Assembly (NCBI GenBank): GCA_025357945.1 | Contig: JANYLJ010000056.1 | Span: 60,646-124,645, forward strand | Origin: Gemmatimonadota bacterium | GTDB taxonomy: Bacteria > Gemmatimonadota > Gemmatimonadetes > Gemmatimonadales > GWC2-71-9 | Direction of reading: 5' to 3' | Length of the DNA stretch: 64,000 bases | Part shown: piece after piece, positions 29,572 to 61,347 of the stretch | Position numbering within the stretch: the stretch's first letter is position 1 | Layout of the letters: each line of letters starts with the position of its first letter | The notes under the pieces: generated by a model | What the model was told of the DNA's origin: nothing | Seen by the model: only the letters and a program-made list of their open reading frames with translations | Databases searched by the model: none | Translations under genes and position numbers: made by a program

Positions 29572-30630
29572 TCAGGCGAACGGGCCCTCCGCACTGGTCA
29601 CCCGCGGCAGCACGAGACGGAACGAGAAGCGCGTCCCTTCACCCTGCGCCGTGCTGACCGAGAGTTCGGCACCCATCGCCTCCACGAGTTTGCGGCAGAT
29701 CGACAGCCCGAGCCCCGAGCCGGAAAACGCGTAGTCACCGCTCTGCTGGCGCCGCCGGAACGGTTCGAACAACGTCGGCATCGCGGCAGCAGGCACGCCC
29801 CGGCCGGTATCCCGCACCGAACATTCCACGATCTCGTCGGTCACTTCCGTCAGCTTCACCTCGACGTACCCTTCAGCGGTGAACTTGAGGGCGTTGGTCG
29901 TCAGGTTCAGCAGCACGCGATTGAGCGCACCGGGATGGCCGCGGCGACGATCGCTCGGCGGGCCTTCGCAGCGCAACTCCAGCCCCTTCTCTTCCGCGAT
30001 CGGCAACACAATGTCCCGCACCGCCTCCATCACTTCCGCCACGGAGAACGCCTGGGTGTCGTGACTGATCAGACGATCGCCGCCGCGAACCAGTTCGATG
30101 ACGTCACTCGCGACCGCATTGAGGCCGAACGCCGCGGAGTACACCAGGCCGAGTTGACGTTCCTGCAATGGCGTGAGGGGTCCGCTGCGCCCACGCAGCA
30201 TCGTTTCGGCAAGGAAGAGGATCGAGGTGAGCGGTGAGCGGAGATCGTGCGCGACTTCGACGATCAGGTCGAGTCCGCTCGGTCCCGTCATCCGCTCCTG
30301 GAAGTGTTCGGACCAGCGTGGCTCAAGCGACGTCGCCACCGACTCGACCGCGCACAGCAGGGGGAGGCATTCTGCCGGTGCGAGGCGCTCACCCTGCTGG
30401 ATCACGCGGCGGCGGAGCAGCGTCACGATCCGGCGGGTGAGTGGCGAGGCCGGTCCGGCTTCAGGTTGGGCCTTGCCATCCGCCGCATCCTGCACGCGCG
30501 CCACCACATCCGCCAATCCCGCAGCGACTTCTGCTTGCGAAATAGCATCCTCGGAAAACGCGCGCCAATCCTCGACCAGCGCGTCGGCCACTGTGTCCAG
30601 GTGCTGACGTGCGGCAGCGCCGAGAGGCAT
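29572..30630 (-). CDS. Soluble sensor histidine kinase (HisKA + HATPase_c)
   Basis: ORF 29572..30630. H-box EVAHDLRSPLTSILFLAETM. N and G boxes: LLNLTTNALKFT, DTGRGV, GSGLGLSICRKLVE. No TM segment. Immediately downstream of the response regulator gene, with one nucleotide between the regulator's stop and the kinase's start codon. Confidence 0.85.
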   Translation of the reverse strand: MPLGAAARQHLDTVADALVEDWRAFSEDAISQAEVAAGLADVVARVQDAADGKAQPEAGPASPLTRRIVTLLRRRVIQQGERLAPAECLPLLCAVESVATSLEPRWSEHFQERMTGPSGLDLIVEVAHDLRSPLTSILFLAETMLRGRSGPLTPLQERQLGLVYSAAFGLNAVASDVIELVRGGDRLISHDTQAFSVAEVMEAVRDIVLPIAEEKGLELRCEGPPSDRRRGHPGALNRVLLNLTTNALKFTAEGYVEVKLTEVTDEIVECSVRDTGRGVPAAAMPTLFEPFRRRQQSGDYAFSGSGLGLSICRKLVEAMGAELSVSTAQGEGTRFSFRLVLPRVTSAEGPFA

Positions 30631-30631
30631 G

Positions 30632-32182
30632 CTACTCGCCGTGGTCGTCGCGCTGGAGCCCGTGCTTCTCCATCAACCGGTAGAGCGTCGTGCGGTCGAT
30701 GTTCGCCTGGCGGGCGGCCTTGGACATGTTTCCGGCCGCGCGGGCCACCAGACGGGTGAGGTAATCGCGTTCGAATTGCGAAACCACCTGGTCCTTCACC
30801 TCGTGGAACGGTCCGTCCAGCATCGGCACGGGCGCCCGCTCCGACGCCACTTCCGCGTCATCGAAGATCGGGATGTCGCCCGGTTCGATCAGCTGTTCCG
30901 GCTCCACCAGCACGGCGACGTGCTCAATGGCATTCTGCAGCTCGCGCACGTTGCCGCGCCAGGGCAGCGAACGCAGATACTCGATGCTCGATTCGCTCAA
31001 GCGCGGCGCACGATCCGGCATTTGCCGGTGGCGATGCCAGAATACGCCAAGAAAGTGATTGGCGAGTATGGCGATGTCCTCGACCCGCTGGCGAAGCGGC
31101 GGCAGCGTGATCGGCACCACGCGGAGGCGATAGAAGAGGTCGCCACGCAGGACGCCCCGCTCCACCGCTTCCTGCGGATCGCGGTTGGTCGCCGAGATGA
31201 AGCGCACGTCCACCGGATCACCCGCCGTTTCGGCACCGACGCGACGCACCACACCGTCCTGGACGACCCGGAGCAACTTCGCCTGCAGCGGCAGCGACAT
31301 CTCGGTGAGTTCGTCGAGGAAGAGCGTACCACCGTTGGCGGTCTCGAGCAGGCCGGGCTTGTCGCGGTCCGCGCCCGTGAAGGCACCCTTGCGATGGCCG
31401 AACATTTCCGACTCGAGCAGCGGTTCGGGCAGGGCGGCGCAATTGATCGGCACCATGGCCTTCTTCGCCCGGCGCGAGTGCTGATGGATGAACTGGGCGA
31501 TGACTTCCTTGCCGGTGCCACTCTCGCCGCTGATGAACACCGACGCATCGGTCGGCGCGACCTTGCGCGCCAGATCCACGGCCTTGCGAAACGCCGGCGA
31601 GATCCCGATCAGCGTGTGGGTATCGGATTGCGAGTGCTGGCGCAGCACCTGAAGCCGGAGGTCGGCCGCTTCCCGGCCCTTGAGGACCGCGTGCGACGCC
31701 CGGCCGATCAACACCTGCAGGTGCGTGGCCGAGAACGGCTTGGGCAGGTAATCCCATGCCCCCATGCGCAGCGCCTCGATGCTCGATGTCACACTCGGAT
31801 TGCCGGTCATCACGACGACCAGGCAGTCGCGGTTCGCTTCCAGCGAGGCGTTCAGGAGGTCGAGCCCCGACACCTGCGACATGAACAGGTCGACCAGCAC
31901 CAGGTCGAACTGGCGCCGTTGCACCATTTCCAGCGCTTCCTCCCCCCGCCCTGCCAGGGTCACGCTGTATCCCTCGCCGCGCAACACGGACGCACAGCTC
32001 TCGCGGAGTGTGCGCTCGTCGTCGACGATCAGAATCCGGATCGACGCCTTGACGTCCGCCGGAAATGACAATGCATCCCGGCTGGCAGGCGACTCCGAGG
32101 GGCCAACGTTCGAGCCGGCCCCGGTAACAGCGGTCATGACGGTACTCCTGGCAGCCTTGGTGGCGTGGGATCTGTCCTGCAC
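30632..32182 (-). CDS. Sigma-54-dependent response regulator (NtrC family; PrsR-like by locus context)
   Basis: ORF 30632..32182. Receiver domain RILIVDDERTLRESCASVL...DLVLVDLFM. AAA+ domain GESGTGKEVIAQFIH plus ESEMFGHRKGAFTGA (GAFTGA). C-terminal Fis-type HTH: AAGNMSKAARQANIDRTTLYRLMEKHG. The start may lie downstream at MTAVTG. Confidence 0.9.
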   Translation of the reverse strand: MQDRSHATKAARSTVMTAVTGAGSNVGPSESPASRDALSFPADVKASIRILIVDDERTLRESCASVLRGEGYSVTLAGRGEEALEMVQRRQFDLVLVDLFMSQVSGLDLLNASLEANRDCLVVVMTGNPSVTSSIEALRMGAWDYLPKPFSATHLQVLIGRASHAVLKGREAADLRLQVLRQHSQSDTHTLIGISPAFRKAVDLARKVAPTDASVFISGESGTGKEVIAQFIHQHSRRAKKAMVPINCAALPEPLLESEMFGHRKGAFTGADRDKPGLLETANGGTLFLDELTEMSLPLQAKLLRVVQDGVVRRVGAETAGDPVDVRFISATNRDPQEAVERGVLRGDLFYRLRVVPITLPPLRQRVEDIAILANHFLGVFWHRHRQMPDRAPRLSESSIEYLRSLPWRGNVRELQNAIEHVAVLVEPEQLIEPGDIPIFDDAEVASERAPVPMLDGPFHEVKDQVVSQFERDYLTRLVARAAGNMSKAARQANIDRTTLYRLMEKHGLQRDDHGE

Positions 32183-32349
32183 TCGTCAAGGCGAAAAGCG
32201 TGCCGAAACTGTGGTGCCGGTCCATCGCTGACGGGCGTTATGAAGTTACACCGTTGCTTCAACGGCGCAGGTGTGTCGTAATAACATCATAATCGTTGCC
32301 GCAATGCAACAGAGGTGTCGCATGAAGTCTGGGCTATTGGCGCAGGTTG

Positions 32350-32366
32350 CGGTATCATGCTTGCAT
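32350..32366 (+). promoter_or_regulatory. Weak sigma-54 -24/-12 candidate upstream of the tyrosine-kinase gene
   Basis: CGGTATCATGCTTGCAT has GG and GC at the correct 12-nt register and a perfect TTGCAT -12 element, but a poor -24 element. About 60 nt upstream of ATG 32426. Confidence 0.3.
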
Positions 32367-32425: not shown

Positions 32426-34843
32426 ATGACGAACCTTGCCCCGCAACGCGGATCGCTGCCGGCCCCCCTCGGGCCGCTGAGTTTCAATCCCGGATCGCCG
32501 CTCGGCAGTGCCAGCGGCGGCCCGCGAACCAGCCCGCTGGTGCGCTACTTCGGCGCGGTCAAGCGGGCCAAATGGCTGGTGCTCCTGTTGACCCTCCTCG
32601 GGCTCGGCGGCGGCTACCTGATGAGCAAGTTGCGGCCGCAGCAGTTCGTCGTAAGGGCCAAGCTGCAGATCGCCCCGACCGACAACCCGACCTTCCAGTC
32701 CGACCAGTGGACGATCTACCTGAAGAGCTACTCGATCGTCAACCCGGTGGTCCTCAGCCGGCGGCTGTACATCCAGGGACCGAAGCGGGTTGGCGGACCA
32801 CCGGCGCCACTCGGCCCGAGCGGACCGGCCGCTGGGCTGTTCAACGGCTTTTCGCTGGCGCCCCGATCGACCGCCGGATCCTATCGGCTGAAGGTCAGTT
32901 CGGACGGGCGCAGTTGGGACTTCACCAACACCCTCAACTCGCAGAAGGAGCGCGGCGCGGTCGGCGATAGCGTCGGCCGGGCATTCGGCTTCCAGTGGTT
33001 GCCGGTCATCGAGCACCGCTGGGCGGGACAGACCTTCGATTTCGACGTGATGACCCCGCGCGAGGCAGCCGATGCGCTCAACTCGCAGCTCGATGTTTCG
33101 GTGGTGCCATACAAGAATCCCCGGTTCATCATTCTCTCGCTCGATGGCCAGGATGCCGACGCGACCGCGGGGACGCTCAACGAGTTGATCGACGTGTTCG
33201 TTGCTGCAGCGGGGATAACCAAGCGCCACGACGTGACCACGGCCGCCGCGGGGCTCGACTCGCAGCTGACCCTGGCCAAGGCGAAGCTCGACGCCGACGA
33301 CCGGGCGCTGCAGCAGTATCAGATCAAGACGATCACGCTGCCGCGGGAGGTATTTCCGGTTGCCCCCGGCCTGCAATCCACCACGACCGGGGCCTACAGC
33401 GAGTACGTCACCAAGCGCAATGAGGTCGCCAAGCTCCGGAAGCAACGGCGTGATCTCGCCGGCGCACTGGCCAAGATCGAGCGAGGCGAAGGTGCCGCCG
33501 ACCAGTACGCCATGAATCCGGTCACCAAACTGTCGCCGGAGCTGATGAGCTACATCACGGAACTGGTCCAGAACGAGCAGCTCTACCAGACCCTGCATGC
33601 GCGCTATACCGATTCTGCGGTCAGCTTCGACGGCAAGATCAACATGCCGCGGCTGCGAGACGACATTCATCGCCTGCGGGCGGCAACGATCCCGATGTAC
33701 ACCCGAGAAGTCCTCAGCACCCTGGATGGCCTGATCGCCAGCGCCGATTCGGAAGTGGTGGCCGGGCGGGGTGAACTGCAGGATATTCCGCAGCGTTCGA
33801 TCACGGAGGCCGAACTCCAGCGCAACCGGACCTTCGACGAGGGCATCGTCGGCGACCTCACCAAGCAGTATCACGCCGCCAAGGCGCGCGAAGTGAGTGC
33901 GGTTCCGGATGTCGCAATCCTCGACCCTGCCGTCGCTCCGCTCAAGCCCACCAAGAACAAGTCGGTGGTGTTGATCGCGATGGGCGCGATCATCGGCCTG
34001 GGTGCCGCCCTCGGACTCGCACTGCTCCTCGACATGACCGACAAGCGGGTACGCTACGCCGATCAGATCACCAGCGGCCTCGGGCTCACAATTCTCGGCG
34101 TGATCCCCGAGATCCGCCGGGCCAAGGGCCAGCAGCCGTCGGCCGACGAGGCCGCCCAGGTGATCGAGTCGTTCCGGACCGTGCGCCTCAATCTCTCGCA
34201 CGCGCTGGGTGAAGGTCCGGTGCTCCTCACCATTTCGAGCCCGTCGCCCGGCGACGGCAAGTCGCTGGTCGCGTCGAACCTCGCGCTGTCGTTCGCCGAG
34301 TCCGGCTACCGGACGCTACTGATCGACGGTGACGCCCGCCGGGGTGAGCTGCATCGCACCTTCGGCACCGAACGACGCCCGGGGCTGCTGGATTTCCTGT
34401 CCGGCGAGTTGGCCATGGATCAGCTGGTGCGTACCACGACGCACAGCCAGCTCAAGCTGATCACCGGCGGCAGTCGCAAGCGCAATGCTCCCGAGCTGCT
34501 CGGCACCCCGCGCATGCGCGAGTTGCTGACCGCCATGCGCAACCAGTTCGACGTCATCATCGTGGATACACCGCCGCTGGGAGCCGGGATCGACCCGTTC
34601 GTCCTGAGCACCCTGACTGGCAACCTCATGCTGGTGGTGCGGGCCGGGGCCACCGAGCGCGACCTGACCGAAGCGAAGCTGCAGATTGTGGACCAACTTC
34701 CGATCCGGCTCGTCGGCGCGGTGATGAACGACGTGCGCTCGACCATGAACGACTACAAGTACTACTCCTTCAGTTACGGTTACGGGGCAGTGGACGAACC
34801 GCTCGAGCCCAAGGCGCTGGTCGCCGACGCCAGGAGTTCCTGA
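32426..34843 (+). CDS. Polysaccharide co-polymerase / tyrosine autokinase (Wzc, GumC/ExoP-like)
   Basis: ORF 32426..34843. N-terminal Wzz-like domain with two TM segments and a long coiled periplasmic region. C-terminal kinase with Walker A SPSPGDGKS, A' LLIDGDARRG and B VIIVDTPP. Tyr-rich tail NDYKYYSFSYGYG. Confidence 0.9.
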   Translation: MTNLAPQRGSLPAPLGPLSFNPGSPLGSASGGPRTSPLVRYFGAVKRAKWLVLLLTLLGLGGGYLMSKLRPQQFVVRAKLQIAPTDNPTFQSDQWTIYLKSYSIVNPVVLSRRLYIQGPKRVGGPPAPLGPSGPAAGLFNGFSLAPRSTAGSYRLKVSSDGRSWDFTNTLNSQKERGAVGDSVGRAFGFQWLPVIEHRWAGQTFDFDVMTPREAADALNSQLDVSVVPYKNPRFIILSLDGQDADATAGTLNELIDVFVAAAGITKRHDVTTAAAGLDSQLTLAKAKLDADDRALQQYQIKTITLPREVFPVAPGLQSTTTGAYSEYVTKRNEVAKLRKQRRDLAGALAKIERGEGAADQYAMNPVTKLSPELMSYITELVQNEQLYQTLHARYTDSAVSFDGKINMPRLRDDIHRLRAATIPMYTREVLSTLDGLIASADSEVVAGRGELQDIPQRSITEAELQRNRTFDEGIVGDLTKQYHAAKAREVSAVPDVAILDPAVAPLKPTKNKSVVLIAMGAIIGLGAALGLALLLDMTDKRVRYADQITSGLGLTILGVIPEIRRAKGQQPSADEAAQVIESFRTVRLNLSHALGEGPVLLTISSPSPGDGKSLVASNLALSFAESGYRTLLIDGDARRGELHRTFGTERRPGLLDFLSGELAMDQLVRTTTHSQLKLITGGSRKRNAPELLGTPRMRELLTAMRNQFDVIIVDTPPLGAGIDPFVLSTLTGNLMLVVRAGATERDLTEAKLQIVDQLPIRLVGAVMNDVRSTMNDYKYYSFSYGYGAVDEPLEPKALVADARSS

Positions 34844-34917: not shown

Positions 34918-36006
34918 TCAGCTGGCCAGCGCCAGCGTCACCTGATCGACGAGTTGCTCGCCGTTTGAAGGAAGTGCCTCGGGGTGCGTACCGGCCACCA
35001 CCGTGGCCCGGAGTTGATCCGCTCCGAGCCCCGCAGCGCCGGAGATCACCTTCCCCAATCGATCGGCCAGGCGGACCGCATCATCCGCGTTGGTACCCGG
35101 CGCGATCACCGCGAGCGTGCTGTCCCCCAGATGTCCCAGGGCGTCGGTTGCCCGCCCGCTGGCCTTGAACGCGGGCACCGCAACGCGCAGTCGGTCGGCC
35201 GAGTCGGAATCCCGGATCGACCACGCCACGCACGCGAACGCGCGGCCGAGTCGGCGTGCCTCGGCAAGCAGTTCGGTGGCACGGCGCGCCAGCCCGAAAC
35301 GGCTGTACAGCCCAGTGGCGTCGTCGATCAGCGCACCGCGTCGCAGCCGGCGCGTTTCCCGGTACGCCGCGAGATAGATATTGATCTTGTGCAGCAGCGC
35401 CTCGGCGTCGAGTGGCTGGCCATAGAACTCCCAGGCACCCGCCGCGTAGGCGTTGAGCCGTTGCGGGCGCCCCGACGGTCCGGCGGTTGTAATGATGATG
35501 GGGAGCGACGGACCAAAGCGCGGGTTGGCTCGCAGCTGGCGACACACGTCGGTGCCCGAAAAATCCGGGAGTTGCTGGTCGAGGATGACGAGATCCGGAT
35601 CCGTTTCGGCGACAACGCGAAGAACCGTTCCGGCGGTGTACGCGTGCATCACCTGATACCCGGCGGCCGCCAGAATCGTCTCGACGGCCCGTGCCGTCCA
35701 TTCCTGGTCGTTGGCAATAACGATCAGCGGGGGTGCCTGATCAGTTGGTGTGGCATCCAAGCTCGACAAGAGTCCCCCGGAGGGCGAGTCACCCAACGAC
35801 GTGTTAGACCGATGCACAGTCGCGACAGTATTGAGACACCGCGTCACAGCCTGGCACAATTCATCAGGGCCAGAGCGCGCCACGCGCATCGACCCTAAGT
35901 CGTTGGCAATAAATAGCTTCCAGCCAGTTGGTGGCGCCAGGCGGCTGCCGCATCGCCGCCGTGGCGATGTCGGCTCTTGTGCAATGTCCCTGCCGTCAGC
36001 CATCAT
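34918..36006 (-). CDS. Response-regulator receiver fused to a degenerate GGDEF-like domain
   Basis: ORF 34918..36006. Receiver: LIVIANDQEW...DLVILDQQLPDFSGTDVCRQLR...LPIIITT. Then DDATGLYSRFGL... with LGHLGDSTLAVIAPG where GGDEF would be expected. The true start may be internal, for example ATG 35889. Confidence 0.7.
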   Translation of the reverse strand: MMADGRDIAQEPTSPRRRCGSRLAPPTGWKLFIANDLGSMRVARSGPDELCQAVTRCLNTVATVHRSNTSLGDSPSGGLLSSLDATPTDQAPPLIVIANDQEWTARAVETILAAAGYQVMHAYTAGTVLRVVAETDPDLVILDQQLPDFSGTDVCRQLRANPRFGPSLPIIITTAGPSGRPQRLNAYAAGAWEFYGQPLDAEALLHKINIYLAAYRETRRLRRGALIDDATGLYSRFGLARRATELLAEARRLGRAFACVAWSIRDSDSADRLRVAVPAFKASGRATDALGHLGDSTLAVIAPGTNADDAVRLADRLGKVISGAAGLGADQLRATVVAGTHPEALPSNGEQLVDQVTLALAS

Positions 36007-36110: not shown

Positions 36111-36125
36111 TGGCAGCAATCTTGC
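36111..36125 (+). promoter_or_regulatory. Sigma-54 -24/-12 promoter candidate (TGGCAGCAATCTTGC)
   Basis: Matches TGGCAC-N5-TTGC at 9 of the 10 specified positions, including GG and GC in the correct register. Lies 117 nt upstream of GTG 36242, which heads the export/priming/exosortase operon. Confidence 0.5.
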
Positions 36126-36241
36126 CAAAAAGGTGCCACCTGGCTTGGCTGACGACTCGCATGCACCACCGGAATAGCGAGCACGAGATGTGCGTTGTAT
36201 TGATTCGTCTGTGTCGGCCGCCCTTTTTCTGGAGTTCCCGC

Positions 36242-37045: not shown

Positions 37046-37813
37046 ATGTCCGGTCCGGTAACGTCCTCCATGCCGCACGCAGACGAGACGTCCTTGTCGC
37101 GACCGCGCGATGCCGTCGCCCTCGTGGCCACGGCTGAGCAGCGCCCGCTGTCACGCGATGAGCGCGTCATTCGCGCCCTCAACGTCGTGGTCGCCACGGT
37201 GATCCTCATCCTGAGCCTGCCGGCGTGGCTGCTGATCGCGATTGCCGTAAAGCTGACCTCGCGGGGACCGGTCCTCTACACCCAGATCCGGGTCGGGCTC
37301 GATGTCCGCAGCGGCCCCGACCGCGGCAAGCGCAGTGGCCGCGCCACCGCGACACGGCGCGGCACCGACATGGGCGGGCGGCTGTTCACCATTGTAAAGT
37401 TCCGCACCATGAAAGTGGACGCCGAAGCCTCAGGCAAGGCCGTCTGGGCCTCGGCCAACGACCATCGGTTGACGATGATCGGCGGATTCCTGCGCAGCTG
37501 CCGCCTGGACGAGTTGCCGCAGCTGCTGAACGTGATCAAGGGTGACATGAACCTGGTCGGGCCGCGGCCGGAGCGCCCGCAGCTGTTCACCGAATTGCGA
37601 GCGCAGATTCCCGACTACCAGCGACGCCAGAAGGTGCGGCCGGGCATCACCGGCCACGCGCAGGTGAACCTCCAGTACGACACCACCGTCGAGGACGTCG
37701 AGCTCAAGGTGCAGCGCGACCTGGAGTACATCGCGAAGCGCAGCGCGTGGGAAGACGTCAAGATCATGCTGAAGACCATCCCGGTGATGCTCTTCCGGAG
37801 GGGCGGATGGTAG
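37046..37813 (+). CDS. Polyprenyl-phosphate glycosyl-1-phosphate transferase (bacterial sugar transferase, priming enzyme)
   Basis: ORF 37046..37813. Contains KFRTMKVDAE...NDHRLTMIGGFLRSCRLDELPQLLNVIKGDMNLVGPRPERP. Carries an Arg/Gly-rich insertion just before KFRTM. Confidence 0.9.
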   Translation: MSGPVTSSMPHADETSLSRPRDAVALVATAEQRPLSRDERVIRALNVVVATVILILSLPAWLLIAIAVKLTSRGPVLYTQIRVGLDVRSGPDRGKRSGRATATRRGTDMGGRLFTIVKFRTMKVDAEASGKAVWASANDHRLTMIGGFLRSCRLDELPQLLNVIKGDMNLVGPRPERPQLFTELRAQIPDYQRRQKVRPGITGHAQVNLQYDTTVEDVELKVQRDLEYIAKRSAWEDVKIMLKTIPVMLFRRGGW

Positions 37814-38715
37814 CAGCCGGTGCGGACCTGGTCCGCACCCGTCCACTGCGCGAGTTGCTGACGCGCCCCCGGTCGGTTGCCGTGTGGTTGCCAACGGGCG
37901 TCGCCGCGGCCGCATTCGTCCTGCTGTTCGCCAGCCCGGTGGGTACGCTGGTCCACGACTGGTTACATGAAGACGACGCGAACTACGGGCTGCTGCTGTT
38001 TCCCGTCGCCCTCTGGCTGGCATGGCGCGAGGGCCTGCTGGCCGACGCTTACCCCGACACGCGAAGCGGGTCATTCGTCATCGCCGGCGCCGTGCTGATT
38101 CGCCTGCTGGGATCGATCGCGTCGGAGTTCTTCACCCAGCGCTTTTCGATCTGGCTGGCGATTCTCGGCATCGTGGTCTTCTGCTTCGGGTGGCGCCAGG
38201 CGCGACACTGGTGGCTGGCGCTCACCATCCTGCTGCTCGCCATCCCACTGCCCGCGCTGCTGATCAACTCGCTGGCGATCCCGCTGCAGTTTCGCGCCTC
38301 GAGCCTCGGCACCCTGCTGATCAAGTGGCGGCACATCCCGGTGCGGACCGAGGGCAACGTGATCCAGATTCCCAACGCCACGCTGTTCGTGGCGGAAGCG
38401 TGCAGTGGGCTACGCTCGCTGTCGGCCCTGGTCGCGTTGGGCGTGCTGCTCAGCGGCATGTATCTCCGCACGGTCACCGCGCGCGTGCTGCTGGTGTTGC
38501 TCGTCGTCCCGATCGCGATCCTGCTCAATGGTGTTCGAATTTTCCTTACCGCGTTCCTGGTGTACTTCGTCGATCCCGAACTCGCCAACGGGCTCGCGCA
38601 CGAACGGCAGGGACTGGCGATGTTCGTGGTGGCCTTTGCGGCGCTCGGCGCGGTGACGGCCGTGGCGCACCTGATCGAGGCGCGTCTGAGCCGGAGGACG
38701 CAGGCACATGCCTAG
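37807..38715 (+). CDS. Exosortase (EpsH/Xrt family)
   Basis: Part of ORF 37747..38715. ATG at 37807 overlaps the upstream stop. Polytopic, with the catalytic-Cys motif VAEACSGLRSLSALVALG and the Arg motif LLNGVRIFLTAFLVYF. Confidence 0.85.
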   Translation: MVAAGADLVRTRPLRELLTRPRSVAVWLPTGVAAAAFVLLFASPVGTLVHDWLHEDDANYGLLLFPVALWLAWREGLLADAYPDTRSGSFVIAGAVLIRLLGSIASEFFTQRFSIWLAILGIVVFCFGWRQARHWWLALTILLLAIPLPALLINSLAIPLQFRASSLGTLLIKWRHIPVRTEGNVIQIPNATLFVAEACSGLRSLSALVALGVLLSGMYLRTVTARVLLVLLVVPIAILLNGVRIFLTAFLVYFVDPELANGLAHERQGLAMFVVAFAALGAVTAVAHLIEARLSRRTQAHA

Positions 38716-39349
38716 CCGGTCGCGCTGGATCCCGGCGGTACTCCTCTCGGCCGGATGCCTTGTCAACGCCATCGTCGCCGCGCGCCGTGCCGGTCCGATC
38801 CCGTTGCGCGCGGAACTTTCCAGCGTCGCGACCCGGCTCCAGGGATTTGCCGCAACCGATGACACCGTCTCCACCGCGGTGCGCCGCGTCGCGGGAATGT
38901 CGTCGTACATCCTGCGCGACTATGGGCCGGCGGCCGCGCCCCTCTTTTCGGTCTACGTCGGTTATTACGACGAGCAGCGACAGGGCAAGAGCATCCACTC
39001 GCCGAAGAACTGCCTGCCCGGAGACGGCTGGGAATCCGTCGAGGCCGGTGCGATCGCCGTCGCCACGACGTCGGGAACCGTCACCGTCAACCGATACCGG
39101 GTGGCGAAGAACAACTACGCATCCATGGTCTACTACTGGTACCAGGGCCGCGGCCGCGTGGCGCACGACGAATTCCGCGTCAAGTTCGACTTGTTGCGGG
39201 ATGCGGCGCTGCGCGGGCGGACCGAGGAGGCGCTCGTGCGCATCGTGGTCCCGATCCACGGAAACGACGTCGCGATGGCGGACAGCCTGGCGCGAAAGCT
39301 GGTTTCGCCGCTCGTTGCCGACATGGATCGCGTGCTGCCGCGGCTTTGA
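38708..39349 (+). CDS. EpsI family exosortase-associated protein
   Basis: ORF 38708..39349, with an 8-nt overlap onto the exosortase gene. N-terminal anchor. Hallmark motif SIHSPKNCLPGDGWE. Confidence 0.8.
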   Translation: MPSRSRWIPAVLLSAGCLVNAIVAARRAGPIPLRAELSSVATRLQGFAATDDTVSTAVRRVAGMSSYILRDYGPAAAPLFSVYVGYYDEQRQGKSIHSPKNCLPGDGWESVEAGAIAVATTSGTVTVNRYRVAKNNYASMVYYWYQGRGRVAHDEFRVKFDLLRDAALRGRTEEALVRIVVPIHGNDVAMADSLARKLVSPLVADMDRVLPRL

Positions 39350-52835: not shown

Positions 52836-55800
52836 TTACGGAACGTGACCCGTACCCGCTGGCGGCGTCGCCTTCGGCGGCGCATTGAGCATCAGTTGCT
52901 GCAGTCGACCGGTCAGCGCAGCGGTCAGCCGGATTTGCGCCCGATCGACCCACGCCAGGAAGTCGCCGATATCGTACTTCCCGTTGCCGTTGCCCTGGAC
53001 ATCGAGCACGGTGCGCTGGTCGTCGGTGAGCACATTGGCATGGAAGAGGTCCTCCACCGCAGCGGTGGGATCCGGCAGCGAAACCGACACGACCTCGAGG
53101 GTGTCCACGTAAATCCCGCGGATACTGGCATCGCGCTGCAGCTGCACCTGCACGGTGTCGATGTACAGACCCACCGGCAGCGTGATGGCCGCACGCTGCC
53201 AGACCAGGGGAGAACCGACCAACCCTTGAGCGGTGAGGATCCGGAGGCGCGACGCCGTGGTACTCGCCGACCACATGTCGGACGGCGCCGCGCCGCCATC
53301 CAGCTGCACGATGGCCGAGTCGATCGTGGGCGACACGATGCTGGAACCGCGGCCGACGGCGAAGATCCTGGTCCGCCGGCTCCCCGGGTGCATCCCAATC
53401 ACCACCTGCCGGGCAGTGACGCGAACCGTGTCGTACACCGTCGCGGGTGATCCGCCTGCCGCGCCGGGCGCCGTGACGGTGATGGTGTCGACCCAGGTAC
53501 CCACGGCGAGGCTGCTCACGTTGCGGGTCCAGGTCACCGTACCGCTACCGGTCCCGTTACTGGTGCCCAACACATTCCAGTTCTTGCGGTTGGCCGCGGT
53601 CCACGGCGTCGCTGCAGCGTTGGTGCCCGAGAGGACAACAGCGGCATTGTCCCCGCCGACATTGCTTCCCTGCACCACCGCCACGTTGCGTGACGAAGGA
53701 CTCACCGCGAGCACGACCGGCACCGGCGCGGCGGTGATACGGAGGGTATCGACCAGCGTGGCGCTCGATCCGTTCGATGTCGTAACCGTGAACGTGTCGA
53801 CATAGGTGCCGACGCCGAGGCCGTTGGCGGAGCGGTTCCACGCGAAGGCGCCGTTGCCGGTACCGCTGCTCGTCGACGGCGTGTTCCATCCCTGACGCCG
53901 GGTCACCGACCACGCGGTCGATCCGGCGTTCGTGCCGGTCAGCGTGACCGTGCCGTTGTCACCGGGGGCGCTGCCGCCCTGTTGGACCACCACATTGCGG
54001 GACGCGGGGCTCACCGCCACCACCACCGGCACCGGCGCTGCCGTGATGCGCAACGTGTCGTAGATCACGGCGGGCGAGCCGTTCGCGGCACCGGGAGCGG
54101 TCACGGTAATCGTGTCGACGTACACACCTGCCGCCATTCCCGCCGCGGCGCGCGTCCACGCGACCGTGCCAGAACCACTGCCGCTCGCCATCGTGAGAGT
54201 GGTCCAGCTCTTCCGCTTGCTGGCGTTCCACCCGATCGACGCGGCGTTGGTTCCCGTCAGCGTGACGGTCGCATTGTCGCCCGGAGCGGGGCTCCCCTGC
54301 TGGACCACCACGCTCCGCGCGGCCGGACTCACCGCCAGCACGACCGGCCCAGCCGCGCTGGTGACTTGCAGCGTGTCGTAGATCACAGCCGGTGAGCCGT
54401 TCGCCGCACCCGGCGCGGTCACCGTGATGGTGTCGACGTACACGCCGACTCCGAGACCCGCAGCCGCCCGACTCCACGCCACCGTACCGCTGCCGGTACC
54501 GCTCGCGGTGGTGAGCGTGGTCCAGCTTTTCTTCCTGCTCGCGCTCCACGCGGTTGACGCCGCGTTGGTGCCGGTCAGCGTGACCGCGGCGTTGTCGCTC
54601 GGCGCGTTGGTACCCTGCATCACCGCGACGTTGCGCGAAGTCGGGCTGACCGCGAGCACGAGGGGCACCGCAGCGGCGGTAATCCGAACGGTATCGTACA
54701 GTGTCGCGGGCGACCCGCTGGCCGCACCCGGGGCGATCACTCTGATGGTGTCGACATACGTGCCCGCCGTCAGGCCGGCCACGTTACGGTTCCAGGCGAT
54801 TGTGCCGCTGCCGGTTCCGCTGGCGACCGTGAAAGTGTTCCAGGCCTTGTGATTGATCGCCGTCCAGGTGGTCGACCCGGCATTGGTTCCCGTCAACGTG
54901 ACGGTCGCGTTGTCGCTGGGCGCGCTGCCGCCCTGCAGGACCGAGACGTTACGCGACCCGGGACTCAGCACCAGCACGATGGGCACCGCGCCGGCCGTGA
55001 CCCGCATGGTATCGTAGATCACGGCCGGTGAGCCGGTCGCCGCACCCGGTGCGTTCACCGTGATCGTGTCGACGTACACACCGATTCCGAGGCCCGCCGC
55101 GGCCCGGCTCCATGCCACCGTGCCACTCCCGGTACCGCTCGCGGTTGTCAGCGTGGTCCAACTCTGCTTCCTGGTTGCCGTCCACCCGGTCGACGCCGCG
55201 TTGGTGCCGGTCAGCGTGACCGCGGCGTTGTCGCTCGGCGCGTTGGTACCCTGCGTCACCGCGACATTGCGCGAAGCCGGGCTCACCGCCAGCACGACGG
55301 GAACCGCAGCGGCAGTGATCCGCAAGGTGTCGTAGATCGCCGCGGGTGAGCCGCTCGCTGCTCCTGGCGCTGTCACGGTGATGGTGTCGACATACACGCC
55401 GACACCAAGCCCGGACGCCGAACGGCTCCACGACACCGTGCCGCTGCCGGTGCCGCTCGCGATGGTGAGCGTGGTCCAGCTCTTCTTCTTCGTCGCGGAC
55501 CAGGCCGTCGTCGCGGCACCGGTTCCCGACAGGGTAACGCCGGCAGCGTCAGTCGGCGCAGTGCCGCCCAACGTGACCGACACGTTGCGCGACACCGCCG
55601 ACAACGACAGCGTCAACGGTGGCGAGCCGCCACCCTGGAGCGAGTTGAGGGCCCGCACCAGACCCCAGCCGGTGTTCTGGTCGTAGCCGGGCGCGTCGAT
55701 ATCGAGCGCACCGTTCTGCAAGGCAGCACGAACACCGGCGAGCGTGATGTTCGGGTTCTGTTGTACCAGCAGCGCGACCGTTCCGGTCACGTGCGGCGTC

Positions 55801-56951
55801 GCCATCGAAGTGCCCGACTTGTACCCGTAGGTGCCGCCGGGAAGCGTGCTTTCGATGTTCTCGCCCGGTGCGGCGATCGCGATCTCGGGGCCGATGGCGG
55901 AGAAGCCTGACCGCGTATTCGACGCCGTCAGCGACGCGACCGCGATGGCGGAAGGGAAGGCCGCGGGGAACTCGACCGGACCGCCGCTGTTGTTGCCCGC
56001 CGCTGCCACGAAGAAGGTGCCGCGCGCCGCCGCCTGATCGACCGCAATCTGGTAGGTGTACGACCAGCTCCCGCCCAGGCTGGCGTTGATCACCCGGATG
56101 CCGTTGTTCGCCGCCCAGTTCACCGCCGCGATCTGGGTCGAGATCCAGGCGCCGCAGCCGCCGCTGAGATCCTCGAACACCTTGATCGCATAAATCGCTG
56201 CTTCGGGCGCCACGCCCACGACGCCGAAACTGTTGTCGCGGCCGGCGATCGTGCCGGCAACGTGGGTACCGTGACCGTTGCACGACGGAATGTCATCGGT
56301 CCAGTCGCCCGGGTTGGTGCCACCAGTCACGGCGTTGTAACCGCCGGCGTAGCCGAGGTCGGGATGACCCGGATCGCCGCCGGAATCCATGACGCCGACC
56401 TTGACGCCGGTGCCGCGGAACCCTTGCGCCCAGGCTCCCGGAGCGGTGATCTGACTGATCCCCCACGGCAGGTCCTGGCTGCGGTACCGCAAGCCTCCCG
56501 AACCAACGGCATCCGCCGCGGTGGTCCGCGGGTACGCGTGGTGATCAGCCCGAGTGGATTGGAGGTAAACCACATGGTCCGCTTCCATCATGAGCACGTT
56601 GGCATCGGCGTTAAGTGCCGCGAGGCGAGCCGGGTCGACGCGGGCGAAGAGCGCGCCGATCATCGGCGCCATCTGGCTGACCGAGATTCCCGGTGAACTT
56701 TCGAGCCGATTCTTGACCTGATTCAACTCGATGTCGCTCAGCGGGTTGGCACCGGGCGCCAACAATCGCGCCTGGACGTTCGCCGACTTGAGCAGGATGA
56801 TTACCCGGCCGCCAGCGGCGTTGACGGAATCGGCCAATCGGGCCAACAGCTGGGGCGACCGCGCCTGCGCCGTCGCCCGTGCGGGCATGCCACAAACGGG
56901 CGCGCCGATCAACAGCGCCAATCCAAACCGGGTAGTCCACCGCATCAGCAT
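52836..56951 (-). CDS. Secreted S8 (subtilisin-like) serine protease with seven tandem ~106-aa repeats and a dockerin/EF-hand-like C-terminal motif
   Basis: Part of ORF 52836..57071. ATG at 56951 gives the signal peptide MLMRWTTRFGLALLIGAPVCGMPARATAQA. Catalytic triad motifs: VGVMDSGGD, NGHGTHVAGT and SGTSMATPHVTG. The repeats are described in the next feature. The C-terminus contains LDVQGNGNGKYDIGDFLAWVDR. Confidence 0.9.
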   Translation of the reverse strand: MLMRWTTRFGLALLIGAPVCGMPARATAQARSPQLLARLADSVNAAGGRVIILLKSANVQARLLAPGANPLSDIELNQVKNRLESSPGISVSQMAPMIGALFARVDPARLAALNADANVLMMEADHVVYLQSTRADHHAYPRTTAADAVGSGGLRYRSQDLPWGISQITAPGAWAQGFRGTGVKVGVMDSGGDPGHPDLGYAGGYNAVTGGTNPGDWTDDIPSCNGHGTHVAGTIAGRDNSFGVVGVAPEAAIYAIKVFEDLSGGCGAWISTQIAAVNWAANNGIRVINASLGGSWSYTYQIAVDQAAARGTFFVAAAGNNSGGPVEFPAAFPSAIAVASLTASNTRSGFSAIGPEIAIAAPGENIESTLPGGTYGYKSGTSMATPHVTGTVALLVQQNPNITLAGVRAALQNGALDIDAPGYDQNTGWGLVRALNSLQGGGSPPLTLSLSAVSRNVSVTLGGTAPTDAAGVTLSGTGAATTAWSATKKKSWTTLTIASGTGSGTVSWSRSASGLGVGVYVDTITVTAPGAASGSPAAIYDTLRITAAAVPVVLAVSPASRNVAVTQGTNAPSDNAAVTLTGTNAASTGWTATRKQSWTTLTTASGTGSGTVAWSRAAAGLGIGVYVDTITVNAPGAATGSPAVIYDTMRVTAGAVPIVLVLSPGSRNVSVLQGGSAPSDNATVTLTGTNAGSTTWTAINHKAWNTFTVASGTGSGTIAWNRNVAGLTAGTYVDTIRVIAPGAASGSPATLYDTVRITAAAVPLVLAVSPTSRNVAVMQGTNAPSDNAAVTLTGTNAASTAWSASRKKSWTTLTTASGTGSGTVAWSRAAAGLGVGVYVDTITVTAPGAANGSPAVIYDTLQVTSAAGPVVLAVSPAARSVVVQQGSPAPGDNATVTLTGTNAASIGWNASKRKSWTTLTMASGSGSGTVAWTRAAAGMAAGVYVDTITVTAPGAANGSPAVIYDTLRITAAPVPVVVAVSPASRNVVVQQGGSAPGDNGTVTLTGTNAGSTAWSVTRRQGWNTPSTSSGTGNGAFAWNRSANGLGVGTYVDTFTVTTSNGSSATLVDTLRITAAPVPVVLAVSPSSRNVAVVQGSNVGGDNAAVVLSGTNAAATPWTAANRKNWNVLGTSNGTGSGTVTWTRNVSSLAVGTWVDTITVTAPGAAGGSPATVYDTVRVTARQVVIGMHPGSRRTRIFAVGRGSSIVSPTIDSAIVQLDGGAAPSDMWSASTTASRLRILTAQGLVGSPLVWQRAAITLPVGLYIDTVQVQLQRDASIRGIYVDTLEVVSVSLPDPTAAVEDLFHANVLTDDQRTVLDVQGNGNGKYDIGDFLAWVDRAQIRLTAALTGRLQQLMLNAPPKATPPAGTGHVP
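53391..55616 (-). repeat. Seven tandem coding repeats, ~318-bp period (BACON/Ig-like units), plus a degenerate eighth copy to ~53080
   Basis: Consensus unit: LAVSPxSRNVxVxQGxxAPxDNAxVTLTGTNAxSTxWxAxxxKSWTTLTxASGTGSGTVAWSRAAAGLGVGVYVDTITVTAPGAAxGSPAVIYDTLRITAAxVPVV. Antisense track ORFs start at 55378, 55060 and 54424, spaced by 318 and 636 nt, which confirms the period. Confidence 0.85.
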
Positions 56952-57031
56952 GCTTTTGAGACTCCTGTCCACGACAGCGAGACCGAGAAAGATCGGGCGG
57001 CGCTTCGCCGAGCCGCTACTGTCAAGATTGT

Positions 57032-57048
57032 ATGCACATCGCTTGCCA
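57032..57048 (-). promoter_or_regulatory. Sigma-54 -24/-12 promoter candidate for the S8 protease gene
   Basis: The reverse strand reads TGGCAAGCGATGTGCAT, with GG and GC in the correct 12-nt register. About 80 nt upstream of ATG 56951. Confidence 0.45.
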
Positions 57049-57407
57049 ACCATAAATCGCCGTGAAAACACTGATGGCGCGACCGTATTGTCCGGCGATA
57101 TGGCGGTTCAGGCCTGATAGTATCGTCAAATAAATGGACAAGCATAGAGCGACCAGAGAAGCATCCGGGGCGGAACGCCGCCACCGCGAATGGTGCACCG
57201 CCTCAACAGCAGGGCGTTGGCTCCTGGCCAGTCGCACGCGTCGCGGCCACGCAACAGATTGTTGTTGCGGCCGCACCATAAAGCGTCCGAACTAGCCGAG
57301 CGCTGACTGATGCGAATGGCTGATCTTCTGAGCGTAACAAATTGTCACGCAATGAGTTAGCGTTTGTGAAATCACTGGTACCGGGCCGCATGGCGGTCGG
57401 ATTCTGA

Positions 57408-57422
57408 TGGCATGCCGTGTGC
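57408..57422 (+). promoter_or_regulatory. Sigma-54 -24/-12 promoter candidate for the PEP-CTERM protein gene
   Basis: TGGCATGCCGTGTGC has the same TGGCA-N7-TGC layout as the protease and export-operon candidates. About 50 nt upstream of ATG 57473. Confidence 0.45.
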
Positions 57423-57472
57423 GTTCAACCGGGCCGTAAGCAATTGCAATCACCCCGAAAGTTGGAGCATTC

Positions 57473-58180
57473 ATGCTGCGCCGAATTGTCAGTAGCGTCG
57501 CCCTCGCAGCCGTCTTCGCGACCGGCGCGCAAGCTCAGAGTCCGTTCCTGGAAAACTTCACCTTCGTCTCGGCCGGCACCAGCGGGCAGCAGTTCAACGA
57601 CTACTTCGGCCGGTTCAACAACGCCGATGTTGCCAATCTTGGTGTCGCGTTCCCGACCGGGCCGACGACCCAGTTCCAGGTCTGGTGCGCCGACGAGGTC
57701 GATGGCGTCGCGGTGGGCGACACGTACAACGTGTGGGTCACGCCGTTGTCGGCCAGCGACTTCTCGAAGACCTACAAGCCCCTCGGCGCACCGACGAACT
57801 ACCGCAGGGCGGCCGGGTTGTCGACCCAGATGAGCGGTACCGCGATTAGCGCCGCCAACGACAACGTCCAGTACTCGATCTGGGACGTGTTGGGCTACAG
57901 CCGGCCGCCGACGCCGGAGCCCGGCTACAACTTTACCGACTACAACTCGACCACGGTCAATGCGGACGAGGCGATCGCCAACACGTTCCTCAACAACGTG
58001 AACCTCAATCAGTGGCTGGTCATCACAGCCACGACCAGGGACGGCCGCAAGCAGGAGTTGCTGTTCAACGACACGTCGCGTCCGTTCGAGACGCCGGTGC
58101 CGGAGCCGGGTACGATGGCGATGCTCGCGCTCGGACTGGTTGGCATGGCTGGCGCCGGATTCCGCCGTCGCCGGAAGTAG
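57473..58180 (+). CDS. PEP-CTERM sorting-domain secreted protein
   Basis: ORF 57473..58180. Signal peptide MLRRIVSSVALAAVFATGAQAQ. The C-terminus VPEPGTMAMLALGLVGMAGAGFRRRRK has a PEP motif, a TM helix and an Arg cluster. Confidence 0.9.
   Translation: MLRRIVSSVALAAVFATGAQAQSPFLENFTFVSAGTSGQQFNDYFGRFNNADVANLGVAFPTGPTTQFQVWCADEVDGVAVGDTYNVWVTPLSASDFSKTYKPLGAPTNYRRAAGLSTQMSGTAISAANDNVQYSIWDVLGYSRPPTPEPGYNFTDYNSTTVNADEAIANTFLNNVNLNQWLVITATTRDGRKQELLFNDTSRPFETPVPEPGTMAMLALGLVGMAGAGFRRRRK
58097..58177 (+). other. PEP-CTERM sorting signal (predicted exosortase recognition/cleavage region)
   Basis: The last 27 codons of the CDS encode VPEPGTMAMLALGLVGMAGAGFRRRRK. Confidence 0.85.
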
Positions 58181-59767: not shown

Positions 59768-60102
59768 GACGATGCCAACTCCCGACCCGGGTTGTTCCCG
59801 GCCAATGGCGAGCCGGGAGTTCACGCTGGCGGCTGGGCGGGCGTGGCACTCGATCGGCTGAGTGCGGTAGCTCCCTGGCTCTGCGAACCCGGATTTCCCC
59901 GGGGGTGCTCTGGGCAGCGTCTAGCTGTTCTGCCGGGAGAGTATCGTCACATACCTGTCAAATTGTAGTGGATTCGAACCGGCCTTTTGCCTGCTTACAA
60001 ATTATCGCCAAGTCTATTGATATATATGAACTTACACAACACCAAATGAGATGATCAGTGGCATCAGAACGCGCTAACTGTATATTTATTGATCGGTTTA
60101 TC

Positions 60103-61347
60103 ATGGCTCAACGCCAGTTCTGGTGGACCCTCGCCGCTGGGTGGCTGATGGTGATCCTCTGGCTCACCTTGCGCTCGGCGCCGGACCAGGCGGCCCGCGT
60201 GATGGAATTGCCGTGGTACTGCGTGTTGTGCGGCGAAGCCGGCGTCGCCGACATCATCCTCAACCTGCTGCTGTTCGCACCCCTGGGTGTCGCTGCGGCC
60301 GCCTTGCAACTGCCGCGCTGGCGCGCCTTCGCATTCGCGGTCGCGTTGACCGTCGCAATCGAGACGATCCAGGCGAAGTTTCTCGTTGGCCGAGACGGAT
60401 CGCTCGGCGACGTGTTCGCCAATTCAGGTGGTGCGGTGCTGGGTTGGCTCCTCTACCCCGGCCTGAGGCAGCTCGGTCGTCCATCGCCCGCGGTTGCACG
60501 CGCTGGTGTGGCTGTGGTGCTCTGCCTCAGTACCGCGACGTGGTTCGCGACGGGGATCGGCCTCCAGCCCGCGCTCAGCACGGCGGTGCCGTGGGTCGGC
60601 CAGTTGCAGCACCAGTGGCCCGGGCACGACGCCTTTCCGGGAACCATCAACGCGGCGGCAATCAATGGCGTTGCGGTCCCCAACGATCCGCTCGACCGGC
60701 CCGCGTCGCTTGGGAAATCGGTCGACCTTCACGTGATGCTGACCCGTACGCTGCCGCTGCCGGCACGCCGGACGTCGCTGGTGCGAATTGTCGATGGGCT
60801 CGGCCACCCGCAAATCTCCCTGGCCGAGTCAGGGGCTGACCTCATCGCGGAGTTGCAGTTGCGGGCGAGTCGCTGGGGTTTTCACACGCCCGAGTGGGCG
60901 TTTCGCGGCGCCATGGCGGTGCCGGCGGGCAAGCGATGGCAGGTCGACGTGCGCTGGACCAGCGACCGGGTCACCATGACCACGGCGGCCGAAGGCGGTG
61001 CGAACGTAATCGCGCGCACGCACCCGTTGTCGATCGCGCTTGGCTGGGTGTTCATCCACCCGTTCGTCCGAGTGGTGGCATCGAGCGGCCGCTTCTGGAA
61101 CTGTGTCTGGCTCGGCTGCTGGTTCGGATTGGTGGGATGGCTCGCCGGAGCGCTGAACTGGCGGGCCGTTGCGACGGCAGCCGCGTTGCAGCTGGCGACC
61201 CTGCTCCTCGCGGCTCTGCTTACGAGTGCGCCATGGCACGTTGATGAACTGATGGTGGCGCTCGCGGTAGCCGCGGTGGTCGCGGCGGCGGCCCGGCGAC
61301 TCGCCGCCAGGCCGCCGCCGGGCCCCGTCCCGCTCAATTCAGGATGA
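60103..61347 (+). CDS. VanZ-like membrane protein with large C-terminal extension
   Basis: Part of ORF 60058..61347. ATG at 60103 gives MAQRQFWWTLAAGWLMVILWLTL...DIILNLLLFAPLG...IETIQAKFLVGRDGSLGDVFANSGGAVLG (VanZ core). About 280 further aa follow, ending in two TM segments. Confidence 0.7.
   Translation: MAQRQFWWTLAAGWLMVILWLTLRSAPDQAARVMELPWYCVLCGEAGVADIILNLLLFAPLGVAAAALQLPRWRAFAFAVALTVAIETIQAKFLVGRDGSLGDVFANSGGAVLGWLLYPGLRQLGRPSPAVARAGVAVVLCLSTATWFATGIGLQPALSTAVPWVGQLQHQWPGHDAFPGTINAAAINGVAVPNDPLDRPASLGKSVDLHVMLTRTLPLPARRTSLVRIVDGLGHPQISLAESGADLIAELQLRASRWGFHTPEWAFRGAMAVPAGKRWQVDVRWTSDRVTMTTAAEGGANVIARTHPLSIALGWVFIHPFVRVVASSGRFWNCVWLGCWFGLVGWLAGALNWRAVATAAALQLATLLLAALLTSAPWHVDELMVALAVAAVVAAAARRLAARPPPGPVPLNSG

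Follow-up and report, generated by a model that had tools for sequence, protein, structure and literature searches.

A putative pair of divergent sigma-54-type promoters between the S8 protease and PEP-CTERM genes of a Gemmatimonadales bacterium

Here, we analyse the 520-bp intergenic region between the divergent genes for an S8 (subtilase) protease and a protein bearing the PEP-CTERM sorting domain, located in a 64,000-nucleotide stretch of DNA from a Gemmatimonadales bacterium (the window; 66.6% G+C). This region is probably a divergent pair of sigma-54-dependent promoters built around a shared central enhancer: two elements of the -24/-12 type face outwards, each towards its own gene, and a dyad-symmetric sequence lies between them (Table 1).

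In the mechanism that we propose, sigma-54 RNA polymerase would bind TGGCAT-N6-GTGC (57408-57422, plus strand) to transcribe the PEP-CTERM gene and TGGCAA-N6-GTGCAT (57048-57034, minus strand) to transcribe the protease gene, and both closed complexes would await an AAA+ enhancer-binding protein at the dyad (57240-57268). The dyad lies roughly 170 bp and 190 bp from the two promoters, so that contact would be made through DNA looping. The likeliest activator would be the response regulator with REC, AAA+ and HTH domains encoded at 30632-32137, together with the histidine kinase encoded beside it. The same circuit apparently drives a tyrosine-kinase gene, a response-regulator gene and an export/exosortase operon, and polysaccharide machinery, sorting enzyme, substrate and protease would thus be switched on jointly. 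We infer the use of these sites by sigma-54, the start positions, the role of the dyad as an enhancer and the activator that binds it.

Outward-facing -24/-12 elements

Both elements are exact matches to TGGCA-N7-TGC, each oriented towards its gene, and in the window sequence both have GG and GC in the canonical register of 12 nt; the sequence thus bears out the coordinates and register given in the preliminary description. Across the whole window and on both strands, TGGCA-N7-TGC occurs 6 times, compared to 2.68 ± 1.61 in dinucleotide shuffles, of which 3 in 100 reach 6. These matches correspond to 5 distinct sites, with 36111 (plus) and 36113 (minus) forming one palindromic site, and the two that are not intergenic (9299 and 15741) both fall within coding sequence. 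The intergenic DNA (7.2 kb, 11.3% of the window, by a rough gene map) holds 4 matches at 3 sites, where 1000 dinucleotide shuffles give 0.35 on average (P(≥3) = 0.005; P(≥4) = 0/1000), and the orientation is correct at all intergenic sites. The chance expectations first put forward for this motif, about 2 in the window and about 0.15 in intergenic DNA, were of the right order (the shuffles give 2.68 and 0.35), and three correctly oriented intergenic sites are, as was argued then, improbable by chance. A looser 16-mer consensus (TGGCAYG-N4-TTGCW, 2 mismatches) is not enriched in the window (16 matches compared to 17.5 expected), so the signal lies in the strict core and in its conservation.

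We compared 11 orthologous Gemmatimonadales loci, that is, the window and loci L001, L002, L004, L006, L008, L010, L012, L015, L076 and L078, retrieved via homologues of the PEP-CTERM protein (38-75% identical to that of the window). The protein has 22 homologues, every source-named one of which is labelled Gemmatimonadales. A divergent S8 protease gene was identified upstream in 7 of the 10 further loci, the upstream gene is divergent wherever it is identifiable, and a glycosyltransferase gene lies 3' of the PEP-CTERM gene wherever the contig reaches far enough.

On the PEP-CTERM side, TGGCAY-N6-TGC is exact in all 11 loci and lies 65-84 nt before the start codon (from the T of TGGCA to the ATG), while the N6 spacer and the flanks vary freely between loci (variants TGGCATGCCGTGTGCG, TGGCATGCGGCGTGCG, TGGCATATGCCCTGCG, TGGCATACCGTATGCT, TGGCATACCCCATGCG, TGGCACGAGCTATGCT, TGGCATGCAGCATGCG and TGGCATAGGCCGTGCA). 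The invariant TGG on the left lacks a mirror-image CCA on the right, so that the conservation is asymmetric, as fits a sigma-54 site and not a palindromic operator. Judged by this pattern, the PEP-CTERM-side promoter is very likely real, with a predicted transcript start at about 57433-57435 and a 5' untranslated region (UTR) of about 40 nt.

The motif also occurs at other PEP-CTERM genes in metagenomes, where it stands upstream in exact form on the coding strand in 7 loci (at 66-99 nt from the predicted start in 6 of them) and never on the control strand. Many more metagenome PEP-CTERM genes have YGGCAT-N6-TTGC with one mismatch. Elements of this kind were seen in L017, L018, L025, L027, L035, L043, L045, L049, L055, L059, L060, L068 and L072, on contigs of 60-67% G+C; in most cases they precede the predicted start by no more than about 100 nt, two fall just inside a start that is probably mis-called, and matches on the opposite strand are almost absent. 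L018 also has GCTGC-N6-GCAACA about 155 nt upstream.

The protease-side element is kept at the same offset in 7 of the 11 loci, is weaker or displaced in two and degenerate in two. It reads TGGCAA-N6-TGCAT in the window and L078, at 73-76 nt from a TTTGACG block, and TGGAAC-N6-TGCAT(A/T) at the same position in L006, L008, L010, L012 and L015. The block itself (AGTATCGTCAAATAAAT) is conserved in nearly all orthologous loci and may be the site of an accessory protein or of a second activator. In an alignment of eight loci (A3), the GC of the -12 and, 12-15 nt further downstream, a CAGT at the expected start are both invariant. A first strict scan had made the protease-side motif appear unique to the window and missing from L001, its nearest relative, a result that was overturned by anchoring on TTTGACG and allowing TGGAAC, and L078 confirms the motif within the clade of the window.

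Two loci bear on where the protease transcript begins. In L008 and L015, the 5' UTR of the protease gene contains a c-di-GMP-I riboswitch that begins about 40 nt downstream of the protease-side element, which implies a transcript start in the short interval between the two. In these two loci, where it is the second c-di-GMP-I riboswitch (for the first, see below), the protease would be under the control of both sigma-54 and c-di-GMP. The transcript start in the window is predicted at about 57022, and the resulting protease 5' UTR of about 70 nt contains no such riboswitch. Taken together, we regard it as fairly likely that the protease promoter is of the sigma-54 type.

The longest open reading frame (ORF) of the protease opens at a GTG at 57071 (52836-57071) and would engulf the minus-strand motif. 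The true start is likely the ATG at 56951, which has AGGAG 8 nt upstream and is followed by a signal-peptide-like N terminus. For the L002 protease, too, the called start (5603) overlaps the place where the promoter element lies, and this call may be wrong. A consensus scan found no sigma-70 promoter in a useful orientation in the intergenic region, and scans for terminators and Rfam families were empty there. We also considered a CGTCAAAT block and an IHF-like CAA-N4-TTR, the latter about 57 nt upstream of the PEP-CTERM-side -24; they fit the E. coli IHF consensus only in part and inconsistently, and we make no claim for them.

Central dyad and candidate activator

The dyad between the two elements has the consensus CGTTGCG-N5-GCAACA-AnTTGTTGTTG, with half-sites GTKGC-N6-GCMACA-N4-6-TGTYGC, and it is present in all 11 loci. 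Its start is always 168-171 nt 5' of the PEP-CTERM-side TGGCA, and six loci gave a distance of 179-192 nt to the protease-side TGG. The 28-mer occurs nowhere else in the window. A fixed spacing of about 16 helical turns is what an enhancer acting by looping needs, and we consider the dyad a candidate enhancer common to both promoters.

A second copy of the dyad sits between the divergent genes for the putative activator and a Wzc-like tyrosine kinase, 55 nt 5' of the -24 element of the latter, and is conserved in two further loci (GTTGC-N6-ACAACA in L014 and GTGGC-N6-GCCACA-N4-TGTGGC in L013). It is mainly because this copy precedes a conserved -24/-12 site in a control region common with the activator gene that the activator of this locus may be supposed to bind the dyad, and what would single it out as the acting protein is this shared, conserved element. 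Covariation between HTH and half-sites, considered for the GTGGC/GCCACA of L013, was uninformative, as the HTH is identical.

The activator is a genuine sigma-54 enhancer-binding protein, as stated in the preliminary description, which noted its GAFTGA loop, with REC, AAA+ and HTH_8 domains. Its ORF was called at 30632-32182, and the likely start is the ATG at 32137. The gene is syntenic in L014 (4276-5778; 90% identical protein) and L013 (4430-6124; 89%), with an identical HTH. In the same genomes the export protein is 70-71% identical, and the PEP-CTERM protein on the same contig of L014 38%, against which the 89-90% of the activator suggests a constraint of unusual strength. GSFTGA replaces GAFTGA in the L013 copy. 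The histidine kinase encoded directly 3' of the activator gene is presumed to be its partner.

Conserved -24/-12 elements precede five transcription units of the exosortase system. Besides the two of the intergenic region, the site at 36111, singled out before, is retained in the genomes of L013 and L014, where it reads TGGCC-N6-TTGCC, 128-132 nt before the export gene (from the T of TGGC to the start codon). The response-regulator gene has CGGCAG-N5-ATTGCAC 154-175 nt upstream in all three genomes (the window, L013 and L014), and the element of the tyrosine-kinase gene is identical in L013 and reads CGGTATCATGTTTGCGT in L014. The PEP-CTERM gene, the sole one in the window (TIGR02595 26.7 bits, cutoff 16; PF07589), stands in the same locus as an exosortase of the EpsH family, so that a sorting enzyme and its substrate type are found together. 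The co-regulation of protease and exosortase substrate by RpoN and the locus activator, as predicted in the preliminary description, is thus supported at the level of sequence, with every part that could be put to a computational test holding up.

The site at 36111-36127 (TGGCAGCAATCTTGCCA) is palindromic, with GG-N10-GC on both strands, and is so in L013 and L014 as well. In principle it might work both ways, with the response-regulator gene on its other side.

Alternative readings

A number of observations weigh against a divergent sigma-54 pair served by the activator of the locus. Both elements have GTGC at the -12, whereas the canonical sequence is TTGC, and a scan of 43 ORFs of the window finds no rpoN, whose presence in the genome is presumed from that of the activator. 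On the protease side, the element is weak in L004 (TGGTCC...CTGCA) and displaced by about 30 nt in L076 (TGGTACGTGGCTTGCG), and in two close relatives the register is lost: the -24 GG has become TG in L001 (the aligned position is CTGCATGCTAGCTGCAT) and in L002 the GC stands 1 nt out of place. In addition, the protease-side -12 region coincides in part with a -10-like hexamer (TACAAT in the window, TATTAT in L001 and L002). The core of the dyad (GTTGC-N6-GCAAC) is not enriched window-wide (3 matches compared to 3.03 expected), so that the case for it is one of position and conservation; the region around the 36111 promoter of the window holds no convincing copy; and the L013 half-sites are GTGGC/GCCACA/TGTGGC despite an identical activator HTH. 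Finally, the activator scores 376.2 bits against TIGR02915, the PrsR family, below its cutoff of 502.6, and 369.9 against AtoC.

The protease-side departures bear on a reading in which only the PEP-CTERM-side element is used by sigma-54 and the protease is transcribed from a housekeeping-sigma promoter whose -10 overlaps the motif, the GG register in the window being incidental. That L001 and L002 lack the proper GG/GC register yet keep both TATTAT and the CAGT start speaks for it, as does a -12 region that is TGCATA-like in most loci and overlaps an A/T-rich -10-like hexamer. However, there is no conserved -35 at 16-18 nt; what is kept instead is the TGG, exactly one helical turn upstream of the TGC, in 7 of the 11 loci, including L078, which is close to the window. 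In the distant loci, moreover, the -10-like hexamers are poor (TAAGAA, TAGGAA) and the sigma-70 scan is empty. We consider a housekeeping promoter for the protease unlikely.

The dyad, in turn, could serve another protein: both promoters would then depend on sigma-54, with their activator encoded elsewhere in the genome, the dyad bound by that protein or by an unrelated factor, and the locus activator directed at other targets. Genomes with sigma-54 usually encode several activators (PMC3162934), and the unenriched dyad core, the altered half-sites of L013 with their identical HTH and the lack of a clear dyad around 36111 in the window would all fit. Set against this, the protein at 30632-32137 is the sole activator found in the exopolysaccharide (EPS) locus of the window, it is syntenic and 89-90% identical compared to 38-70% for other proteins of the locus, a dyad copy lies in its own divergent control region, and an activator encoded beside its targets is the usual layout. 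An activator from elsewhere thus seems somewhat unlikely to us. That the motifs are not promoters at all, being chance matches or operators of a symmetric protein, is very improbable. TGGCA-N7-TGC does contain a GCA...TGC inverted repeat, which L006 and L010 extend to GCATAC-C-GTATGC, and the looser consensus is unenriched in the window, but against both chance and a symmetric operator stand the exact match in 11 of 11 loci, with its distance to the start codon fixed, the asymmetric TGG without a CCA partner, the intergenic enrichment and an orientation that is right at all sites.

Known systems and the wider locus

The regulation proposed here has its closest counterpart in that of proteobacterial PEP-CTERM genes. 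Haft et al. (2006) found 99 of 167 such genes to have an upstream sigma-54 motif, with a 17-mer that ends in TTTACA located about 63 nt further upstream; they tied these motifs by phylogenetic profile to PrsK, PrsR and PrsT and reported them as shared by Proteobacteria only (PMC1569441). In Aquincola, pepA is RpoN-dependent, with a mapped start and a TGGCAC/CTGCTT promoter (PMC9850573). More broadly, Francke et al. (2011) found sigma-54 promoters and activators to be genomically associated across phyla with EPS synthesis and export and with the cell exterior (PMC3162934); their text has no occurrence of PEP-CTERM or exosortase, and Gemmatimonas appears only in the legend of a taxonomic figure. 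Our literature search found no paper linking Gemmatimonadota PEP-CTERM genes to sigma-54.

The present case shares with the Prs system a -24/-12 element roughly 50-70 nt before single PEP-CTERM genes whose upstream regions are long, a conserved upstream motif taken to be the site of the activator, and a response regulator with REC, AAA+ and Fis-type HTH domains encoded near exosortase and EPS genes, whose best NCBIfam match is indeed TIGR02915. In contrast to the Prs system, the kinase is short (352 aa, with HisKA and HATPase_c only) and does not have PrsK among its 25 best families; no PrsT is found among the ORFs scanned; no TTTACA, the end of the Prs 17-mer, occurs in 57300-57407; the upstream element is an array of GTKGC dyads at 168-171 nt, not about 63 nt; and -24/-12 sites also stand before a divergent protease gene and an exosortase operon, in a Gemmatimonadales host. 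The case follows the working principle of the PEP-CTERM box system without belonging to it.

For the geometry, the nearest parallels are zraP-zraSR and hyc-hyp of E. coli, in which divergent sigma-54 promoters share an activator site placed between them. These have in common with the present region two outward -24/-12 promoters in one intergenic region with dyad-symmetric sites between them, and differ from it in genes, activator and signal, and in a spacing that is wider here (about 170 and 190 bp), where the sharing of the site is presumed.

We tentatively propose, as a picture that we hold somewhat short of probable, that the whole Gemmatimonadales exosortase system could run on one sigma-54 circuit independent of PrsKR. 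It would comprise the tyrosine kinase, the response regulator, the export/exosortase operon, the secreted S8 protease and the PEP-CTERM substrate, with one highly conserved response-regulator activator on tripartite GTKGC dyads and one enhancer serving two divergent promoters at 168-171 bp (about 16 turns) from that of the PEP-CTERM gene, layered with c-di-GMP-I riboswitches in the locus. Soil and sediment bacteria widely possess PEP-CTERM/exosortase systems, whose regulation has so far been described only for the proteobacterial PrsK/PrsR box and tested only as RpoN dependence in floc-forming Betaproteobacteria. The same logic of sigma-54 and a two-component activator would here operate in a poorly studied and rarely cultured phylum, with a different enhancer, kinase and geometry. 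As a lineage-specific, non-PrsR extension of a known mechanism to another phylum, this would not surprise a specialist, but the cis-elements can be used in the annotation of Gemmatimonadota genomes and provide a testable regulon model for biofilm and floc formation.

Table 1 Features of the intergenic region and of the exosortase/EPS locus (window positions unless a locus is named)
Feature	Position	Strand	Details
PEP-CTERM-gene -24/-12 (sigma-54 type) element	57408-57422	+	TGGCATGCCGTGTGC; TGGCAT-N6-GTGC; 51 nt before ATG at 57473
S8-protease-gene -24/-12 (sigma-54 type) element	57034-57048 (to 57032 with AT)	-	TGGCAAGCGATGTGC(AT); TGGCAA-N6-GTGCAT; 83 nt before ATG at 56951
CAGT at predicted protease transcript start (+2 to +5)	57018-57021	-	Invariant in 8/8 loci of alignment A3
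Conserved block	57119-57135		AGTATCGTCAAATAAAT (TTTGACG on - strand); 73-76 nt upstream of protease-side -24
Tripartite dyad, candidate enhancer (upstream activating sequence)	57240-57268		GTCGC-ggccac-GCAACA-gattgt-TGTTGC
Second dyad copy	32295-32325		GTTGC-cgcaat-GCAACA-gagg-TGTCGC; 55 nt 5' of tyrosine-kinase -24 element
PEP-CTERM sorting-domain protein gene	57473-58180	+	235 aa, signal peptide, tail VPEPGTMAMLALGLVGMAGAGFRRRRK
S8 (subtilase) protease gene	52836-56951	-	1371 aa, signal peptide, PF00082 195 bits
NtrC-family enhancer-binding protein, candidate activator	30632-32137	-	REC, Sigma54_activat PF00158 221 bits with GAFTGA, AAA lid, HTH_8
Histidine kinase gene	29572-30630	-	352 aa, HisKA + HATPase_c; directly 3' of activator gene
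Wzc-like tyrosine-kinase gene	32426-34843	+	
Response-regulator gene	34918 to about 35820	-	REC and uncharacterised C-terminal part
Export operon	from 36242 (GTG)	+	Polysaccharide export protein, priming glycosyltransferase, exosortase, EpsI, O-antigen-ligase-like protein, several glycosyltransferases
Exosortase	37747-38715	+	TIGR02602 157 bits (cutoff 105.55)
EpsI	38708-39349	+	TIGR02914 105.5 bits
Glycosyltransferase gene	downstream of 58180	+	
VanZ-like protein gene	60058-61347	+	
Export-operon -24/-12 element	36111-36125	+	TGGCAGCAATCTTGC(C); 117 nt before GTG 36242; conserved as TGGCCACGATCTTGCC in L013, TGGCCGCAATCTTGCC in L014
-24/-12-like element, response-regulator gene	35981-35995	-	CGGCAGGGACATTGC(AC) / CGGCAGGGACATTGCAC; L013 CGGCAGGGAGATTGCAC, L014 CGGCAGAAACATTGCAC
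-24/-12-like element, tyrosine-kinase gene	32350-32364 (to 32366)	+	CGGTATCATGCTTGC(AT) / CGGTATCATGCTTGCAT; 62 nt before gene
c-di-GMP-I riboswitch, L008	5431-5522	-	54.4 bits, above Rfam gathering score
c-di-GMP-I riboswitch, L015	931-1022	-	42.3 bits to c-di-GMP-I-GGC model, below its gathering score

Two further features of the locus stand apart from the promoters. A conserved block at 36177-36205, in the predicted 5' UTR of the export gene, reads GAGCACGAGATGTGCGTTGTATTG in the window, GAGCACGGGTTGTGCATTATTCGG in L013 and GAGCATGGGATGTGCTTTTATCG in L014, and has no match in Rfam even at a permissive threshold. The other is a c-di-GMP-I (GEMM-I, RF01051) riboswitch at 59825-59919 on the minus strand, upstream of a small minus-strand gene (about 59354-59770/59824; 139-156 aa, no Pfam domain). 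A site at 59844 (TGGCACTCGATCGGC, 1 mismatch), once a candidate for a sixth promoter, lies inside this riboswitch on the other strand and was dropped. The riboswitch scores 32 bits in the window, under the gathering score of 35, and was missed by the default scan; its counterparts reach 35.4 in L004, 41.5 in L006 and 38.9 in L008. A 6-way alignment is 81% identical, and the stem changes in it (GCACTC/GAGTGC compared to GCGCTC/GAGCGC, and CCCGG/CCGGG compared to CCCGCG/CGCGGG) are, judged by eye, apparently compensatory.

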